Below, in pieces: positions 36,341-59,760 of a DNA stretch of 59,931 bases. Under the pieces are notes generated by a model. It saw only the letters and a list, made by a program, of their open reading frames with translations, did no database searches and was not told the DNA's origin. Source of the stretch: a virus (taxonomy: Duplodnaviria; Caudoviricetes); the IMG/VR virus record IMGVR_UViG_3300036832_000301, positions 1 to 59,931 of that record; one strand, 5' to 3'. Position 1 is the first letter of the stretch. The number at the start of each line of letters is the position of its first letter. A program made the translations under genes and the position numbers.

Positions 36341-36623
36341 GTCCCATAGCGTGCCATAGTGTCGCACCACGTCCCACTGGGTTCCATTTATTTTGTACGC
36401 ATTAGATGTTACCTACGGTTTTTTAAGGCCACGTTTATATCGCGTTTTCAATGCCTTAGTCGTTGGGATAATGGGTTGGACGACGACTTACAACTGTTGT
36501 CCCATAGAGTCCCACCACGTCCCAAATAGCCTTTGTTTTCAACTTCATACTTGGCCCTCGCGTCCCATAGTGTCTAACTAAGTCCCACCACGTCGCAGCG
36601 TTTTGTACGCGCAATTTTGTACC
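36341..36623. other. Putative attP region
   Basis: AT-rich intergenic stretch before the integrase; TTTTGTAC at 36391, 36601, 36615; three clusters of 10-bp-phased GTCCCA repeats. Confidence 0.6.
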
Positions 36624-36639
36624 TACAAGGGATTTGGCT

Positions 36640-38037
36640 ATGGCTCGAAAGACCAAGAAACTACTCGATATGAACCTCCGCGCAGCCGTCGAGCGCGCCA
36701 TCGACACCGGCGAACAGGGCCGATGGAATGATGGCGGCGGGCTGGTGTTCATCGTCACCGCCGCAGGCAAGGCGCGCGCCCTGCACCGCTACGAGTGGCA
36801 GGGCATCTGGAAGTCGCGCTGGTATCCCGGCGAGTACCCCCGGCAACTGTCGCTGGCGAACGCGCGGGCGATCCACGCCAACGACATCGACCTGCTCGAA
36901 AACAACATCGACCCGTCCGAAGATGTCGCGGCGCAGGAGTTGACGCCGACCCTGGAAGCCTACGCCCGCAAACATTTCCGGCTGCTGGCCTGCGCCTTCG
37001 AGCGCGACTTCGATCCCATCGAGCGGTCGCAATGGTTCACCGACGTCACCGTCCGGATGGGGCGGGTCGCGAAAATGGACATCGACAAGATCAGGCTCAC
37101 CGACGTCGAGGGCGCGCTCAAGCACTACTGGGTCGACCACGTTCCGCGCCCGACCGCCGCGCGCATCGCCTCGCGGGTCGCGGCGGTGCTGCGCCACCGG
37201 CACGCCAGGACCCGGCCCGACGAGCAATGGATGAACCCTGCCGACTGGAAGACGCTCAAGGATCGGCTGGGCAACCATCGGCACTTCGCCGAGCACCACG
37301 CCTCGCTGGAATTCGAGCAGGTTCCGGCGCTGATCAAGCTGCTGCGCACCGACAAGGCGATGTCCGCCCGCTGCCTGGAATGGGTGATCCTGACCGGCTG
37401 TCGCGCCGCCGAAGCGACCGGCGCGAAGTGGGGCGAGATCGACCTCGGCACGCGGACGTGGACGATCCCGACCAGCCGCCTCAAGACCGAGCGCAGCAAA
37501 GGGCCGCGCGGCAAAGCCTTCGTGGTGCCGTTGTCGCTGGCGATGGTCGAAGTCTTGCAGCGGGTGCGCGAGAACCGGGGCGACCTTGCCACCGACGACC
37601 TGATCTTCCCCGGTCGCGAAGTCACCATCCGCGACGGGCGGCGATACAAGACCCAGTCGCTCAGGCGCACGCTCGCCCGCCACTGGCCCGACATCAGCAC
37701 GCACGGCTTCCGCTCCACCCTGGTCGCCTGGGGCGTGGCGATCCCGCACCGCAAGCGCCAGCCATTCGAGTTGGTGGTGATGGACCGGGTGATCGGCCAC
37801 AACATCACCCCGAAAAGCGGCCAGGACGAAGCCGGGTCGAAAATCTCGCAGGCGATGGGCGCTTATGCGCACAAGGCCGGGCGCGACCTCTACCTCGCCC
37901 GGCGCAAGGTGGTGATGCGGGAATGGTCGGCGTTCATCCGCAACGGGCTCGCGCCGGAACTGCCGCCGGTGGTCGCCGCGACCCCCGAGAACGACAACGT
38001 GGTGCATCTGCACCAGCAGGCCAAGGTCGCCGCCTAG
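36640..38037 (+). CDS. int: Tyrosine integrase with N-terminal arm-binding domain
   Basis: DGGGL N-terminus; TGCRAAE, HGFRST, IGH, AY catalytic residues. Confidence 0.92.
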   Translation: MARKTKKLLDMNLRAAVERAIDTGEQGRWNDGGGLVFIVTAAGKARALHRYEWQGIWKSRWYPGEYPRQLSLANARAIHANDIDLLENNIDPSEDVAAQELTPTLEAYARKHFRLLACAFERDFDPIERSQWFTDVTVRMGRVAKMDIDKIRLTDVEGALKHYWVDHVPRPTAARIASRVAAVLRHRHARTRPDEQWMNPADWKTLKDRLGNHRHFAEHHASLEFEQVPALIKLLRTDKAMSARCLEWVILTGCRAAEATGAKWGEIDLGTRTWTIPTSRLKTERSKGPRGKAFVVPLSLAMVEVLQRVRENRGDLATDDLIFPGREVTIRDGRRYKTQSLRRTLARHWPDISTHGFRSTLVAWGVAIPHRKRQPFELVVMDRVIGHNITPKSGQDEAGSKISQAMGAYAHKAGRDLYLARRKVVMREWSAFIRNGLAPELPPVVAATPENDNVVHLHQQAKVAA

Positions 38038-52834: not shown

Positions 52835-53367
52835 CCACCGACAGCGACAAGGCATTCGATCAGCCGCACCACGGGCACAGCGACGGCTTCCGCGCATTGC
52901 TGGTCGATCCCGCCGACCGGACGGTCACCGAAGTCGAGATGCGCTCAGGCGAGCCGCCAAGCTGGCGCGGACTGATGGGGCTCGATCCTGGCGAGAGCCT
53001 CGATCATGCGATCATCTGGGGTGGTCCGAACGACCCGGTGCGGCTGTGCATCTTCGTCGACGGCGCTGGCTACTACCGCCAGCCGCCGCCTGCGTGGTGG
53101 CGCTTCGATGACTACCCCAACCCGCTGCCGGGGCGGACCCTGGTCTATGGCTGCGACGAAGCTGGCGAGACGGTTGATGTGCCAGACGATCTCGAAGCCT
53201 TTTATCAGCGCGTGGAATGGCTCGGCTCCGAGCGCCCGACCCTGCCGAAGTCGCAAGTGATCAGTGGCGGCAAGGTGGTCGTCGAGGTCGACCACAACGC
53301 GCCCGACCGGCCTCAATCGCCTGCCGAATACTTCGACCGGATGTTTCCGAAGGAACCTAAGCCGTGA
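52831..53367 (+). CDS. Hypothetical phage protein
   Basis: LLVDP..RTVTEV...IFVD...GET. Confidence 0.55.
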   Translation: MTTDSDKAFDQPHHGHSDGFRALLVDPADRTVTEVEMRSGEPPSWRGLMGLDPGESLDHAIIWGGPNDPVRLCIFVDGAGYYRQPPPAWWRFDDYPNPLPGRTLVYGCDEAGETVDVPDDLEAFYQRVEWLGSERPTLPKSQVISGGKVVVEVDHNAPDRPQSPAEYFDRMFPKEPKP

Positions 53368-53741
53368 GATTGCTGGTCTGTGGCGGGCGGCATTATCGCA
53401 ACGCGGAAGCGGTGCGGATGGTGCTCGACGCTGCGCTGCGCAGCGGGCCGGTCACGATCATCCAGGGCGGCGCGCGCGGGGCTGACAAGCTAGCGCGGGA
53501 ATGGGCGGATGATCGCGCGGTCGAGTGCATCACATTCGCCGCCGAATGGGATCGGGACGGGACCATGGCCGGGCCGATCCGCAATCAGCGGATGCTCGTC
53601 GAAGGCAAACCCGACATGGTCCTCGCCTTCCCCGGCGGGAACGGGACCGCGAACATGATCCGGAAAGCTCAGGCGGCGCGGGTGCTGGTGGTCAGGTTTC
53701 CGCCGACCGGCGACAACCGGATGCCCTTCGGTCTCGACTAA
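53364..53741 (+). CDS. SLOG/YspA-like (DUF2493) protein
   Basis: LVCGGR, IIQGGARGAD, AGPIRNQRM, AFPGGNGT. Confidence 0.85.
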   Translation: MRLLVCGGRHYRNAEAVRMVLDAALRSGPVTIIQGGARGADKLAREWADDRAVECITFAAEWDRDGTMAGPIRNQRMLVEGKPDMVLAFPGGNGTANMIRKAQAARVLVVRFPPTGDNRMPFGLD

Positions 53742-53941: not shown

Positions 53942-54426
53942 AGGGTAACGGCTCCGCTTGAAAATACCAGGGCAGCGGGTGCCGCCCTTGTGTAAGGAAT
54001 GTGTTTAAACATGCGCGTGCGACGGTGCAAGCACTACCGCTCACAACGCCGCGAAACCTGCCGCCCTAGCCCTCGTTCCATTCGTCGGCGATAGCCTGGG
54101 CGTCGGCCTGGGTCGCGAACGGGGCCGAGGCGGCGTCGAACGTGCCGTCCTCCTGGGCGTATCCCACGATCCAGCCGTGGAACATCGGGTCGTGGCTGGG
54201 GTCGGTGTTGTGGAAGACGGTGAGCATCGGGTAACTCCGTGTTGGTGAGAGTGTGTACGATGCTGCACACACGCTTGCAAGCTATAAGGGTGCGGTCGGG
54301 TGCCGCACCCCCAGCCGCGCCCTACCAGCCGAACTTGGTCCCTTTTTGCAGAACCGTCATCGCGCAGCCTGGAGACGGGTGCTATCTTGCCGTGTACCTG
54401 TTCAACCTTGGCTAGTGGGGCTCTCC

Positions 54427-54951
54427 GTGCTGCACCTTGCAAAGTCGCTCGCCGTCACGGCGGCGGTCGCTGTCCTGGCTTTCGCCGTTCCCACCGCTGC
54501 CGCGACATTCCTCGATGAAGCTGGCCCGGCTTCGGACGGCTCGCTGTCGTGGGACCTGGGGAACGACGGCGGTATCCCGCTCGGCGCATTCACCGACGAC
54601 TTCATGCTGACGTTGCCCGCGACCGGCTTCACCGCCGCCGGGGTCGAGGCGACCTTCACGTCGAGCACCAACGATCTCACCTTCTCGCTGGTCACGCTGG
54701 GCGGCCTAAAATTCAAGCTGTTCGATGAGCCGAGCGAGCACCTCGGCACGTTCCCCGCGCATATCTTCGCTGGCGGCCCGATCCTGCTCGAAGTGAAAGG
54801 CACCAGCCCCGGCCCGGCGGCCAGCTACGACGGGCATGTGACGTTCTCGCCGGTCGCGGTTCCTGAGCCGGTCACTTGGGCGCTGATGGTCTTCGGTTTC
54901 GGCGCGGCTGGCGCGATGCTTCGGCGTCGGCGCTCGACCGTCTCGGCCTAG
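54427..54951 (+). CDS. FxDxF-type PEP-CTERM (PEPxxWA) exosortase substrate
   Basis: Signal peptide, FTDDF, C-terminal VPEPVTWALMVFGFGAAGAMLRRRR. Confidence 0.88.
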   Translation: MLHLAKSLAVTAAVAVLAFAVPTAAATFLDEAGPASDGSLSWDLGNDGGIPLGAFTDDFMLTLPATGFTAAGVEATFTSSTNDLTFSLVTLGGLKFKLFDEPSEHLGTFPAHIFAGGPILLEVKGTSPGPAASYDGHVTFSPVAVPEPVTWALMVFGFGAAGAMLRRRRSTVSA

Positions 54952-56092: not shown

Positions 56093-56352
56093 TGAGCCAG
56101 CACCCGCACCCCGGCGACACGCGCTACATCGGCAAGGCGACGCCGAAGGGCGTGGTGATCAAGGCGCTCAGCCGGGGCGAATGCCTCGGCACCTACTTCG
56201 TGGCGATCAGCCAAGGCGGCGACAAGATCGGCGAGCCGAAGCGCCTGCCGGGCTTCGAGCCGGTCATCGGCGAGGAAGCCGAGGCGGTGCTGTTTATGGC
56301 CCGCCGGTCGTTCAACAGGCTCAACGCAGGCGACATCGCCCAATGGGATTGA
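56092..56352 (+). CDS. Hypothetical protein
   Basis: TGATG coupling to upstream gene. Confidence 0.55.
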   Translation: MSQHPHPGDTRYIGKATPKGVVIKALSRGECLGTYFVAISQGGDKIGEPKRLPGFEPVIGEEAEAVLFMARRSFNRLNAGDIAQWD

Positions 56353-56387
56353 AACCTGCTAAACTCCCCGCCGTCGTTGAACACCTT

Positions 56388-56414
56388 GACCCTGCTTCGG
56401 CGGGGTCTCTTTTT
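56388..56414 (+). terminator. Intrinsic terminator
   Basis: GACCCTGC-TTCG-GCGGGGTC hairpin followed by TCTTTTT. Confidence 0.75.
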
Positions 56415-56429
56415 GCGCTATAGAGCGGA

Positions 56430-56978
56430 ATGGCCCGCCGCAAACACAAGCCAGCCGACCCGCAGGACATCGCCCGTCGACGCGCCGAGCGGGATGCCAA
56501 CGAGATCGAGATCAGACGCTTGCGCGATCACGGCGCGGTGGTCAGCCTGGATCGGGCGCGCAGGATCACCACGGCCTATCGCGCCAGCCCGTTCCGCAAG
56601 CTGCTCGACACCAAGACCATCACCACCACCCAGAGCGCCGCCGCCGAACGCCTCTGCCAGGACTGGGCCGAGTGGAAGGGTCTGGACGGCAAGCCACCGC
56701 CGACCGGCATCCCGAACCCGCATCCGTCGCAGAGCACCGCCTTGGTGACGGATCGGATGTTGCGCGGCGGTCAGCGCATCGCTCAGGCGCTCGGCGCGGT
56801 CGGTCCGGTCGACCGCGAGCTCTTAGGCGCAATGGCCGCCGCTGCGGTTGAGGAAGATTGCCCGATCCCCTGGCGCGACATCGTACGCCGGATCACGGGT
56901 GTCACGCAGACCGTCAGGCAGTCGCAAACCGTCGCGAATGCGCTCGCGAATTTGGTGGGCGCTTATCACTTGAGGTAG
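56430..56978 (+). CDS. Putative late-transcription regulator-like protein
   Basis: Q..AAERL..DW...ALG.VG...L..L...Y pattern and position before HNH/terminase. Confidence 0.45.
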   Translation: MARRKHKPADPQDIARRRAERDANEIEIRRLRDHGAVVSLDRARRITTAYRASPFRKLLDTKTITTTQSAAAERLCQDWAEWKGLDGKPPPTGIPNPHPSQSTALVTDRMLRGGQRIAQALGAVGPVDRELLGAMAAAAVEEDCPIPWRDIVRRITGVTQTVRQSQTVANALANLVGAYHLR

Positions 56979-56983
56979 GCGAC

Positions 56984-57012
56984 GGGCCGCCAGCGAAGCC
57001 CACTGACGGCCC
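56984..57012 (-). terminator. Hairpin at the 3-prime end of the pentamer array
   Basis: Minus-strand GGGCCGUCAG/CUGGCGGCCC 10-bp stem with a G-U pair (a C-A mismatch on the plus strand); no clear U-tract. Confidence 0.5.
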
Positions 57013-57031
57013 CTTGGCGACCTCGGCGCTA

Positions 57032-58115
57032 CTACCCTAGCCGAACCGGCCCAGCCTCACCCAACCACGACGAGCCACACCGTGCCCTGCCACGCCGAAC
57101 CCGGCCATGCCAGCCGCACCGCGCCGGGCCTAACCGTGCAACACCGCGCAACGCCTTGCCTGCCCAACCGAGCCTGACCGCGCCGGGCCATTCCAAGCCT
57201 TGCCTTGCCTGCCGCGCCGCGCCTGACCCGGAGCAACCCCGCCTGACCACGACGGGCCGCGCCACGCCAGCCAGACCTTGCCAAGCCGCACCCGGCTCGA
57301 CCTGACCTTGCCTCGCCTGCCTACCTCGCCAGGACACACCTAGCTCAGCCTCGCCAGCCCTGCCGCGCCCCACCTAACCTAGCCCTGCCAGCCAAGCCGT
57401 GCCACGCCATGACCTGCGTCGCCCTGCCTGCCATGCCGGGCCAAAACAGACCTGACCCCGCCTAGCTGAACCTCGCCATGCCTGCCACACCTTGCCATTC
57501 CAAACCGCGCCTGACCGCACCTTGCCGCGCCGCGCAATGCCTCGCCTGCCAAACCCCGCCTCGCCATGCCCAGCAGCACCGAGCCCCGCTGGGCCTAGCC
57601 TGCCGTGCCCTGCGTTGCCGTGCCTACCATGCCAGACCCCTGCCACGCCTGCCGCGCCGAGCCATGCCCAGCCCCACCGGACCGCGCGATGACACACCGG
57701 GCCTGCCATACCGCACCTTGCGACACCGAACCCCGACCCGCCTAAACAAGCCGTGCCTGCCGCGCCCTGCCCACGCTCGACCTTGCCACACCGCGCTCAG
57801 CCATGCCTGCCGCACCGGGCCGCGCCTCGCCAGACATCGCCATGCCGTGACCCGCCCTGCCAGCCATGCCCTGACCTGCCCCACGTCACCACGTCTGCCA
57901 TGCCGGGCCTGACTCTGCCTGACCCAGCCTCGCCCCACCATGCCTGCCGGGCCGGGCCAAGCCTTGCCTAGCCCTTCCGCGCCGAGCCATGCCAGCCAGA
58001 CCCTACCTGACCTCACATCGCCATGCCCTGCCACACCAAGCCCATCCCCGCCTCGCCTGCCTCACCTTGCTCTGCCTGACCCTGACACGCCTCGCCAAAC
58101 CCAATCTCGCCTCGG
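57032..58115 (-). repeat. GGY-NN pentamer array, about 21 units; putative guide-RNA array
   Basis: Plus strand reads NN-RCC with 5-nt period for over 1 kb; 4-nt TGCC/AGCC phase breaks mostly 49-64 nt apart; no credible ORF; begins at the stop codon of 58116-58640. Confidence 0.85.
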
Positions 58116-58640
58116 CTAAGCCGGTTCGGGTTTAAGCTCGGTTTCGAGCCGCGCGAGTTCCAAGGCCGCGACGGTTTCGTCAATCGCGCCATTGACCCGT
58201 GCGAGCTCGATAAGGTCGCTATATCGCCGTCGCCAGGAATTGAGCTCGCCGAGCGCCCGGCTGAGCAGCCCATGCACGACCTGCGCGTCGCTCGCCGCCC
58301 ATTGCACCCCGGCGTAACCCTGCTCGCCGCCCACGGTGACGATGTTGACGAAGGCGCGCACCCCGTCCCTGATCTCGCCGTCCTTGGTGATGATCTCGAC
58401 TTCAAGCTGCTGCACCACCGCGCGCGCCTGCTCGACCCGATAGGCCGCGCCAGCTACCGCGTCATCCCATTCGAACAACGGATGCAGCGGTGAGCTCGCG
58501 GGCTTCGCCGCCTCGACGATTTCCGGCGGATGCAGCAGCCCGTTCCCGGCCAGGGCTTCGAGCGCTTCGCCGATGGTCTGCGGATCGGTCCCATAACGAT
58601 GGGCTCCGGGTCGCCAGAAATAGGTTGTGCGGCTGGTCAT
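58116..58640 (-). CDS. Partner protein of the Cas7-like gene
   Basis: ATG at 58640 overlaps upstream stop; SPLHPLFEWDD...YRVEQAR motif. Confidence 0.75.
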   Translation of the reverse strand: MTSRTTYFWRPGAHRYGTDPQTIGEALEALAGNGLLHPPEIVEAAKPASSPLHPLFEWDDAVAGAAYRVEQARAVVQQLEVEIITKDGEIRDGVRAFVNIVTVGGEQGYAGVQWAASDAQVVHGLLSRALGELNSWRRRYSDLIELARVNGAIDETVAALELARLETELKPEPA

Positions 58641-59278
58641 CGGCTCGGCACCTTCTCGTTGGACTTGGCGACATGGAAGCGACCGAAAGGCCCGTTGCGC
58701 TGCGGACGCCAATCGCCGATCCCTACCGCGAAACCGGCCAGATCGAACAGGCTGATGACCTGCTCAGGCGAGATCGCCGAGGTGTTGACCTTGACCGTCA
58801 GGATCGCGCCCCAAGGGTTGAATTCAGGGCGATAGCGCAGATCGGCGACCCCCATTCCGACCCGCGCGATGTCTTCGCGCATCGACGGTGGCGGACCGCT
58901 GATCTCGACGAATTCGCCGACGATGTGGAACGCCTGCCGCGCCGCCACCTTGGTCATCCCGGCCACCGACGTCACCGCGTCGACCGCCGCGCTCTTGAAG
59001 CCCACCGCCGGGAAGCCGAACAGCGCCGCCTCGATATCCGCCTCGCTCGGCTTCTTGGGTTTCTCGGTGAGCCAGTAGAGCGCATCGCAGAAGTCGTCCC
59101 ACGGCACCTTGGCGTCGCGGCCTTTCGCGCCCTTGCGCTGCTGCTTGGCCGCCATCTGCTCCTTGGCCTTCTGCGACCACGCATGCACGATCAGCGGGCT
59201 GTCGCCGATGATCGGCACCTCGATGGTCTCCACCTGTAGGCGCGGAAGCTCTAAGACGTTGGTGGTGCTCGCAGCCAT
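58637..59278 (-). CDS. Cas7/RAMP-like RNA-binding protein
   Basis: N-terminal IIGDSPLIVH strand, FPAVGFKSA, RYRPEF..W and C-terminal glycine loop GIGDWRP...GPFGRF; AGGAG RBS. Confidence 0.72.
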   Translation of the reverse strand: MAASTTNVLELPRLQVETIEVPIIGDSPLIVHAWSQKAKEQMAAKQQRKGAKGRDAKVPWDDFCDALYWLTEKPKKPSEADIEAALFGFPAVGFKSAAVDAVTSVAGMTKVAARQAFHIVGEFVEISGPPPSMREDIARVGMGVADLRYRPEFNPWGAILTVKVNTSAISPEQVISLFDLAGFAVGIGDWRPQRNGPFGRFHVAKSNEKVPSR

Positions 59279-59320
59279 GTGCCTTCTCCTGTTGCTCTAT
59301 ACAGCCCTACCCCCTAGGCA

Positions 59321-59349
59321 ATTAGCCGACTCACTCACATATCTGTCAA
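59321..59349 (-). promoter_or_regulatory. Sigma70-type promoter for the Cas7-like operon
   Basis: Minus strand TTGACA-N17-GCTAAT; GANTC site in the spacer. Confidence 0.55.
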
Positions 59350-59442
59350 CGCCGCTGTATGGTGGCCTGTGTGCAGGGTGGACGCTACGGGTGGTGTTGC
59401 AAGACCCTTGCACCCCTATAGGTATAGGCGGATAACTTGGTT

Positions 59443-59760
59443 ATGGGGCAGCGACCGCGCCCATCCGACCGGACGCCAGAGGTCGCGGCCTATCAGCGAT
59501 GGTACTGGACGCCGCGCTGGCGTCGTAAGTCGCACGATCAACTGATTGCGCATCCGTTCTGCGCCTACTGCCTGCGCGACGAAGGTGTGTTCACCGCCGC
59601 GACGATCTCCGATCACGTCATCCCGCATCGAGGTAACGCACATCTGTTCTGGCACGGCGAATTGCAGAGCTTGTGCAAGCCGCACCACGACGGCGATAAG
59701 CGGCGCGAGGAACAGATGATGCAGCCCGAGCGCTGCGATGCGGATGGATGGCCGGTGTGA
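59443..59760 (+). CDS. HNH endonuclease (terminase-associated)
   Basis: PFCAYC...DHVIPHRG...LQSLCKPHH..K; adjacent to packaging genes on circularisation. Confidence 0.88.
   Translation: MGQRPRPSDRTPEVAAYQRWYWTPRWRRKSHDQLIAHPFCAYCLRDEGVFTAATISDHVIPHRGNAHLFWHGELQSLCKPHHDGDKRREEQMMQPERCDADGWPV

Follow-up and report, generated by a model that had tools for sequence, protein, structure and literature searches.

The 59,931-nucleotide virus record IMGVR_UViG_3300036832_000301 of IMG/VR (Duplodnaviria; Caudoviricetes), the whole of which is referred to below as the window, carries a Viral Interference Programmable Repeat (VIPR) system (bioRxiv 10.64898/2026.04.26.720920, 10.64898/2026.04.26.720927 and 10.64898/2026.10.15.759431). 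One block of its repeat array, at positions 57433-57482, is very probably a VIPR guide, and its pairs decode to the peptide word that surrounds the catalytic tyrosine of many tyrosine integrases. We consider its intended target to be, on balance, probably this catalytic-tyrosine box in the integrase of a rival temperate element.

As the text of the VIPR preprints describes it, an approximately 20-kDa RAMP protein, Vipr, polymerizes along a vrRNA of 9-16 YNNGG repeats, sequestering every GGY and displaying the NN pairs, which bind double-stranded DNA with one target base skipped between pairs, usually the codon wobble (10.64898/2026.04.26.720920). Targets may lie on either strand and need no protospacer-adjacent motif (PAM) (10.64898/2026.04.26.720920, 10.64898/2026.04.26.720927). 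The natural targets described there are rival phages, satellites and prophage regulators, with transcriptional silencing as the outcome; the seven reported types include one with staggered arrays of overlapping vrRNAs, and a target is called at an NN match of at least 80% (10.64898/2026.04.26.720920). The systems characterized in this text are two gammaproteobacterial ones. The locus in the window is a VIPR system, and the decoding in the original prediction, which took each NN pair as codon positions 1-2 and skipped the third base, is therefore the published rule. The following features make up the locus:

58637..59278, minus strand: the vipr gene, coding for a 213-amino-acid (aa) RAMP-like protein (phrog_4652) with the C-terminal loop GFAVGIGDWRPQRNGPFGRF.

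58116..58640, minus strand: the putative accessory gene, coding for a conserved 174-aa protein (phrog_15946), in the vap position.

57023..58116, minus strand: the vrRNA array, with 22 in-register blocks of 4-13 GGYNN pentamers each, amounting to 194 pairs over 1.1 kb.

In the sense of the RNA, vipr and the accessory gene sit directly upstream of the array. Pfam has no family for either protein, and the assignment of the first to Vipr comes from profile comparisons. Profiles of the 213-aa family, which has more than 2,000 members, match PDB 36pp_D, the Vipr protein of SUSP1, with E=4.3e-7, or 9.3e-12 when a broader alignment is used, and the glycine-rich loop G(V/I)G(D/E)WRP..(F)GRF is aligned with 36pp_D in this match. 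Using this family we gathered 155 related loci (73 from genomes, 80 from viral contigs and 2 phage records), and the module is conserved across them: a G-rich array with 5-nt periodicity is present in 135 of the 155, an accessory homologue in 144, and the order vipr-accessory-array in 103. The arrays comprise 705 blocks, 668 of them on the vipr strand, with a modal length of 9-11 repeats that falls inside the published 9-16, and are found from Alphaproteobacteria to Firmicutes, Actinobacteria, Spirochaetes and mycobacteriophages. For the accessory protein, no PDB match was recovered beyond one to SopD at E=0.02 over a single short motif. The protein carries a strikingly conserved, invariant HPLFEWDD motif, which is what the SopD match covers, and the latter is probably meaningless.

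In the array itself, the YNNGG repeat of VIPR is present as 22 blocks of 4-13 repeats adjoining vipr, with 10 repeats in the block of interest, which is the thirteenth. The blocks are split mostly by single 4-nt units (GGCA, GGCT or GGTA), each of which moves the register by one base, and the tract has a C content of 48% on the plus strand. Identity at a lag of 5 nt is 0.50 in 56979-58115, as against 0.275 +/- 0.040 for 300-nt windows over the whole stretch, and exceeds 0.40 only in 300-nt windows starting at 57001-57901. The array was found to hold no tails, hairpins, ribozymes or repeated non-pentamer elements. Its identity as a known RNA family or ribozyme was dropped for want of an Rfam match inside it: a scan of 56300-59500 yielded, at E<=1, just a weak Ysr49 match outside the array. 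A scan for promoters and terminators, which is uninformative for this host, turned up no sigma-70-like promoter and a sole terminator-like site on the plus strand at 56388-56407, upstream of the neighboring gene. Next to the array, 56430-56978 has no relative that could be found in the genome contigs.

It is extremely improbable that the array codes for a protein or is simple low-complexity DNA and not a series of guides. A 5-nt repeat does leave several frames open, and GenBank calls coding sequences (CDS) over such arrays, namely gene 48 of Donkeykong and gene 40 of UmaThurman. Against a coding role, neither lag 3 nor lag 15 gives a peak in the periodicity scan of the array, and the 4-nt units shift the frame, leaving it as broken open reading frames (ORFs) of 111-136 aa in different frames. 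Against both a coding and a low-complexity origin stand the linkage of such arrays to a Vipr homologue in 135 of the 155 related loci and the exact, in-frame match of another block, guide 8, to real methyltransferase genes, which is described below.

The block at issue and the units that flank it are as follows:

57433..57482, minus strand: guide block 13 of the 22 in the array, made of ten GGYNN repeats.

57483..57486, minus strand: a 4-nt unit, GGCA in the RNA sense, which shifts the pentamer register and is the probable 5' boundary of block 13.

57429..57432, minus strand: a 4-nt unit, GGCA in the RNA sense, which breaks the 5-nt register and is the probable 3' boundary of block 13.

Read directly, the plus strand of block 13 is ATGCC GGGCC AAAAC AGACC TGACC CCGCC TAGCT GAACC TCGCC ATGCC; in the minus, or RNA, sense it becomes GGCAT GGCGA GGTTC AGCTA GGCGG GGTCA GGTCT GTTTT GGCCC GGCAT, with the NN pairs AT GA TC TA GG CA CT TT CC AT. 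These pairs specify the 29-bp target ATnGAnTCnTAnGGnCAnCTnTTnCCnAT and decode to [MI][DE]S[Y*]G[HQ]L[FL]P[MI]. The pairs and the decoding put forward in the original prediction are correct: the arithmetic held on re-checking and an independent dynamic-programming parse returned the same unit.

The evidence for an integrase target begins with the peptide word. The inner eight pairs of block 13 read [DE]-S-Y-G-[HQ]-L-[FL]-P and fit all seven constrained positions of [DE]xYGHLFP, where x is the free position. Given its own pair frequencies, the array should hold about 3.8e-7 full matches to D.YGHLFP by chance, and none arose in 20,000 shuffles. The original prediction had associated the motif T.D.YGHLFP with phage integrases, and this association is borne out: many integrases from viral contigs have T[MLF][DE]xYGHLFP where their PF00589 domain ends on the C-terminal side. 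The guide is thus like the C-terminal box of the tyrosine recombinases (PF00589), ...GHxxxxxT[MLF][DE]xYGHLFP, in all seven constrained residues; it is unlike the box of any integrase examined in having Ser (TCN) at x and Met/Ile on both sides.

When the pair at x is freed, the resulting pattern GANNNNTANGGNCANCTNTTNCC matches at least 120 viral contigs, and 58 of the 80 matches examined read [DE]xYGHLFP in frame. All ten ORFs tested among them are PF00589 integrases, with the match running to the end of the catalytic domain. The GH..T. box lies just upstream in 49 of 78 such matches but in none of the 78 matches of a reversed control pattern. This control also matched at least 120 viral contigs and gave a recurring motif; 25 of its 27 motif matches belong to one lineage, whereas the matches of the x-freed pattern form 12 clusters at 50% identity. 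Among the 80 examined, 30 have an [DE]xYGHLFP site that fits the guide in 8 of 10 pairs, the preprint's criterion being at least 80%, and 28 more are at 7 of 10. Integrase sites with 8 of 10 pairs include those of the MDTYGHLFPK and MERYGHLFPS types.

An integrase-like word recurs in an unrelated array, L061, from a metagenome-assembled genome of Micromonosporaceae, in which one guide decodes to [KN]A[DE]TYGHLLP[DE]S; shuffling gives an expectation of 0.02 such guides per 705 blocks. This 1.2-kb array (4726-5975 in L061) lies upstream of vipr and has a second guide for a variant of the integrase tyrosine box, which reads ..TL[RS]VYTHL[IM]. The 12-pair integrase guide of L061 has no exact match in the viral contigs. 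Other integrase boxes (H.LRH, TG.R..E, YAHL etc.) do not clearly exceed shuffled controls in the 705 blocks, the exception being YTHL, observed twice where 0.1 was expected.

A sister guide in the same array serves as a positive control for the decoding:

57708..57757, minus strand: guide block 8, the reverse complement of which decodes to [IM]A[FL]T[DE]PP[Y*][KN]V.

The full 10-pair pattern of guide 8 has at least 120 exact matches in the viral contigs of IMG/VR, where chance, roughly estimated, would give well under one. All 80 of the matches examined read MAFTDPPYNV in frame within ORFs of at least 100 aa, through 46 distinct 29-mers. The five ORFs tested are without exception PF01555 methyltransferases (N6_N4 DNA methyltransferase), four of them with a ParB_N domain. 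DPPY-type guides further occur in four other arrays, with 0.04 expected. This shows that guides of this array obey the wobble-skip rule on real genes and can aim at a catalytic motif shared by many divergent genes, and it is this result that makes the integrase reading of block 13 credible. A comparison of all guides of the array with 2.4 Mb of retrieved loci gave nothing above shuffled guides save for a single match of guide 8; L088 and L098 had been chosen by the pattern itself and were therefore not counted. The single match, with 8 of 10 pairs, lies at about 9456 on the minus strand of L025, another VIPR-bearing prophage locus, and reads by eye MCFTDSPYNV, a methyltransferase-like motif.

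Against an integrase target weighs the search for the target itself. Unlike block 8, block 13 has no exact target in the same viral-contig database: among 2.9 million viral contigs the 10-pair pattern has no match, nor does a 9-of-10 pattern with x freed, and the 8-pair core has two, neither in an integrase, one being an orphan ORF reading IDSYGQLLP and the other a non-coding site. The pattern search proposed by the original prediction, with the nine pairs of ATNGANTCNTANGGNCANCTNTTNCC, returned 11 metagenome contigs of the Joint Genome Institute (JGI) holding 7 distinct sequences, with no integrase among them. Three of the seven are in frame in other proteins and four are out of frame or contain a stop. 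The exact-pattern matches are thus random by gene class, the outcome that the original prediction had itself named as contrary to its claim. No integrase was found with Ser (TCN) at x or with more than 8 of 10 pairs; for integrases to emerge the pair for Ser has to be freed, and they then match at 7-8 of 10 pairs. In databases so large, chance matches at 8 of 10 pairs are not unusual. In 401 genomes from the class of a related host, 20 sites fit with at most 3 base mismatches, as against about 22 for the reversed control by hand count, and none with at most 2; nor do five genomes with close Vipr homologues have such an integrase. In the block itself, two of the ten repeats are degenerate and lack GG, with AGC and GTT in place of GGY. 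Moreover, terminal AT pairs are about twice as common at block ends (13-15%) as inside blocks (6.9%), and those of block 13 may be a boundary signal and not part of the guide. Lastly, the mismatch tolerance of VIPR is not stated in the published text that bears on it (10.64898/2026.04.26.720927).

Across the 705 blocks of the 135 loci with arrays, the end pairs are biased in general: the first position is AA in 22% and AT in 13%, and the last is AT in 15%. Such a bias points to signals for block boundaries or for processing at and near the 4-nt units.

Two alternatives draw on these negative results. The first is that block 13 is a working guide aimed at a non-integrase gene encoding ...DSYG[HQ]L[FL]P..., its integrase likeness being that of a common peptide word. 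The best in-frame matches at 9 of 10 pairs are indeed of this kind, namely an MMPL transporter (L221, IDSYGHLFP), a UvrD helicase (L228, IESYGHLFP) and, in L076/L226, an orphan 97-aa frame (a 91-aa ORF if counted from ATG) on a viral contig of 61% GC, reading IDSYGQLLP. However, two viral-contig matches and seven distinct metagenome matches are, by a rough estimate, about what chance would give for 18 fixed bases in collections so large, and the matches have no gene family in common. L076 has no real similarity to the window, and its standing as a homologue of this stretch was dropped after tblastx returned just noise. Furthermore, the match to the integrase motif lies far past chance and is independently replicated in L061. 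We therefore regard a non-integrase target as quite unlikely. One 29-mer common to L219, L220, L222 and L225 (JGI metagenome, 39-45% GC) fits all ten pairs of guide 13. As a target it was set aside, since it lies outside the wobble-skip frame of any long ORF, and is taken as chance.

The second alternative takes block 13 to be decayed or an orphan: a guide that formerly fitted an integrase and is now devoid of a circulating target or function. The contrast between the at least 120 exact targets of guide 8 and the lack of any integrase at 10 or 9 of 10 pairs for block 13 speaks for this, as do the two degenerate repeats. On the other side, internal degeneracy is described as common in working vrRNAs (10.64898/2026.04.26.720920), the databases hold few prophages of the host, and the block retains its register and its boundaries; decay hence appears unlikely. 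Returning to a functional guide against integrases, the claim of the original prediction that the integrase of another element is targeted stands in so far as the motif matches and integrase sites are found in frame at 8 of 10 pairs, and falls short in that no integrase was found at 9 or 10. With a strong motif, and with no integrases among the exact matches, the target class is probable and we name no actual target.

The phage has a tyrosine integrase of its own:

36571..38037, plus strand: the frame of the resident tyrosine integrase (PF00589), open from the preceding stop.

This protein ends in ...SQAMGAYAHKAGRD, and its tyrosine box, QAMGAYAHKAG, shares 3 of 9 pairs with guide 13 when read by eye. 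With such a box the resident integrase is not a target, in agreement with what had been predicted for it. The best match of guide 13 anywhere in the window is 5 of 10 pairs, the same as for shuffled guides, and among guides of 8 pairs or more the closest self match has 8 of 11 (73%), none reaching 80%.

Block 13 decodes in the RNA sense and the methyltransferase unit as its reverse complement. The earlier argument from these opposite strands to a double-stranded DNA target is upheld, and fits what the preprint's text describes. It is very improbable that the guide acts on mRNA instead of DNA. RNA is indeed the target of the RAMP relatives found in type III CRISPR systems, but nothing specific in favor of such a role was found for this locus. 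Block 13 is in the same sense as an integrase mRNA and so could not pair with it, guide 8 being antisense; and the text of the preprints presents double-stranded DNA binding and targets on both strands (10.64898/2026.04.26.720920, 10.64898/2026.04.26.720927).

Taking block 13 as a DNA-directed guide against integrases, we propose the following course of events. A single leftward transcript would span the vipr gene (58637-59278), the accessory gene (58116-58640) and the array (58116-57023), and its array portion would be processed into guides. One Vipr protomer would then bind each GGY triplet of block 13, forming a ribonucleoprotein in which ten NN dinucleotides are exposed. Together, these ten pairs would read a 29-bp site on double-stranded DNA while skipping every third base, and because the skipped base is the codon wobble, the guide would in effect recognize the peptide [MI][DE]SYG[HQ]L[FL]P[MI]. 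Its binding is predicted to block transcription at or before the catalytic-tyrosine codon in the gene for a competitor's integrase, the competitor being a temperate phage, a satellite or an integrative element. Integration or excision of the rival would presumably be impaired, while the carrier's own, differently worded integrase would be spared.

Among the described VIPR systems, this locus is closest in several respects to those of type II, as found in Escherichia phage SUSP1 and a Pseudomonas fulva prophage. Like these, it is phage-borne and combines a small RAMP-like Vipr, homologous by profile, with an adjacent, putative accessory gene and GGY/NN pentamers on the strand of the operon. As in published VIPR, one base is skipped at the wobble, which guide 8 verifies here, and there is no self-targeting. 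It differs from type II in that there is no invariant 3' tail or pseudoknot for each guide, the 22 blocks abutting with 4-nt units between them; in that its accessory protein was matched to no named vap and the host is probably an alphaproteobacterium; and in that the targets suggested here are conserved catalytic motifs, as opposed to satellite genes or lysis-lysogeny regulators. The lack of tails and spacers between neighboring vrRNAs is shared with the 'staggered vrRNA arrays' of the legend to fig. S18 of 10.64898/2026.04.26.720920, in which adjacent vrRNAs overlap by 1 nt, and a 4-nt unit would fit this as a pentamer sharing one base. We infer, likening the two from that figure legend alone, that the architecture of this locus may be identical with that of the staggered arrays. 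Outside of VIPR, there is a broader parallel with Class 1 CRISPR-Cas, where Cas7 assembles on the crRNA, and with CRISPR interference (CRISPRi): in each case a RAMP protein oligomerizes along a guide RNA and periodically removes bases from pairing, and, on the VIPR side as described in the preprint's text, DNA binding blocks transcription as in CRISPRi. Unlike Class 1 CRISPR-Cas, however, VIPR has no repeat-spacer array, cas1/cas2 or PAM, and it pairs in dinucleotides, with a 5-nt period in the RNA and a 3-nt period in the DNA.

Similar arrays also occur in known phages. When phage genomes were compared with the region by blastn, they came up in 25 records, comprising 22 Mycobacterium phages (Cheoctovirus), 2 Gordonia phage records and 1 cyanophage. 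In Donkeykong and UmaThurman the genes for both proteins border the array and share its strand, their order being permuted. Here, the arrays adjoin Vipr and accessory homologues, and hence VIPR modules seem to be present in cluster-F-like mycobacteriophages and in a Gordonia phage, with their arrays miscalled as genes. The GGYNN arrays of Mycobacterium phage Donkeykong (gene 48; L001, 3971-4357) and Gordonia phage UmaThurman (gene 40; L002, 3943-4266) are annotated as CDS of hypothetical proteins, while some sister records of these phages leave the array region unannotated. Certain 6-pair words, such as TG CA GT GA TT AC and CC AG CG AA TG GG, recur in up to 6 loci as shared guides. Elsewhere in the window, 53364-53741 and 54253-54951 hold a YspA/SLOG-family gene (PF10686, phrog_289) and a protein with a PEP-CTERM motif.

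VIPR as such has already been described (2026); what may be new here is that the tail-less clade is so broad and that catalytic peptide motifs may serve as its targets. The clade of this locus, which is very large and has long arrays, is not named in the main text of the VIPR preprints, and the main text of 10.64898/2026.04.26.720920, leaving aside its supplementary data, does not contain the words integrase, methyltransferase or catalytic. No exact target was found for block 13, and for this reason its integrase assignment stays a prediction, whereas guide 8 offers a clear case of one guide covering a whole protein family. At a practical level, VIPR arrays should be masked in CDS calling, and decoded guide peptides offer a quick prediction of the genes over which phages fight.

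Finally, the two guides together raise a wider idea, which we advance tentatively though we hold it to be quite possible: the tail-less VIPR clade might aim its guides at invariant catalytic motifs in the hallmark genes of mobile elements, such as the tyrosine box of integrases and motif IV (TDPPY) of methyltransferases, thereby silencing whole families of proteins in rivals, with guide 13 acting as a broad block on integration and excision. As the skipped base is the wobble, one guide would read an amino-acid word and could silence a protein family across many rival phages, satellites or integrative elements, and the carrier phage would escape its own guides by having a differently worded enzyme. 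The published VIPR text discusses only escape by synonymous mutation. If the guides do target catalytic motifs, the wobble-skipping code would amount to a family-wide silencing of rivals by amino-acid words.

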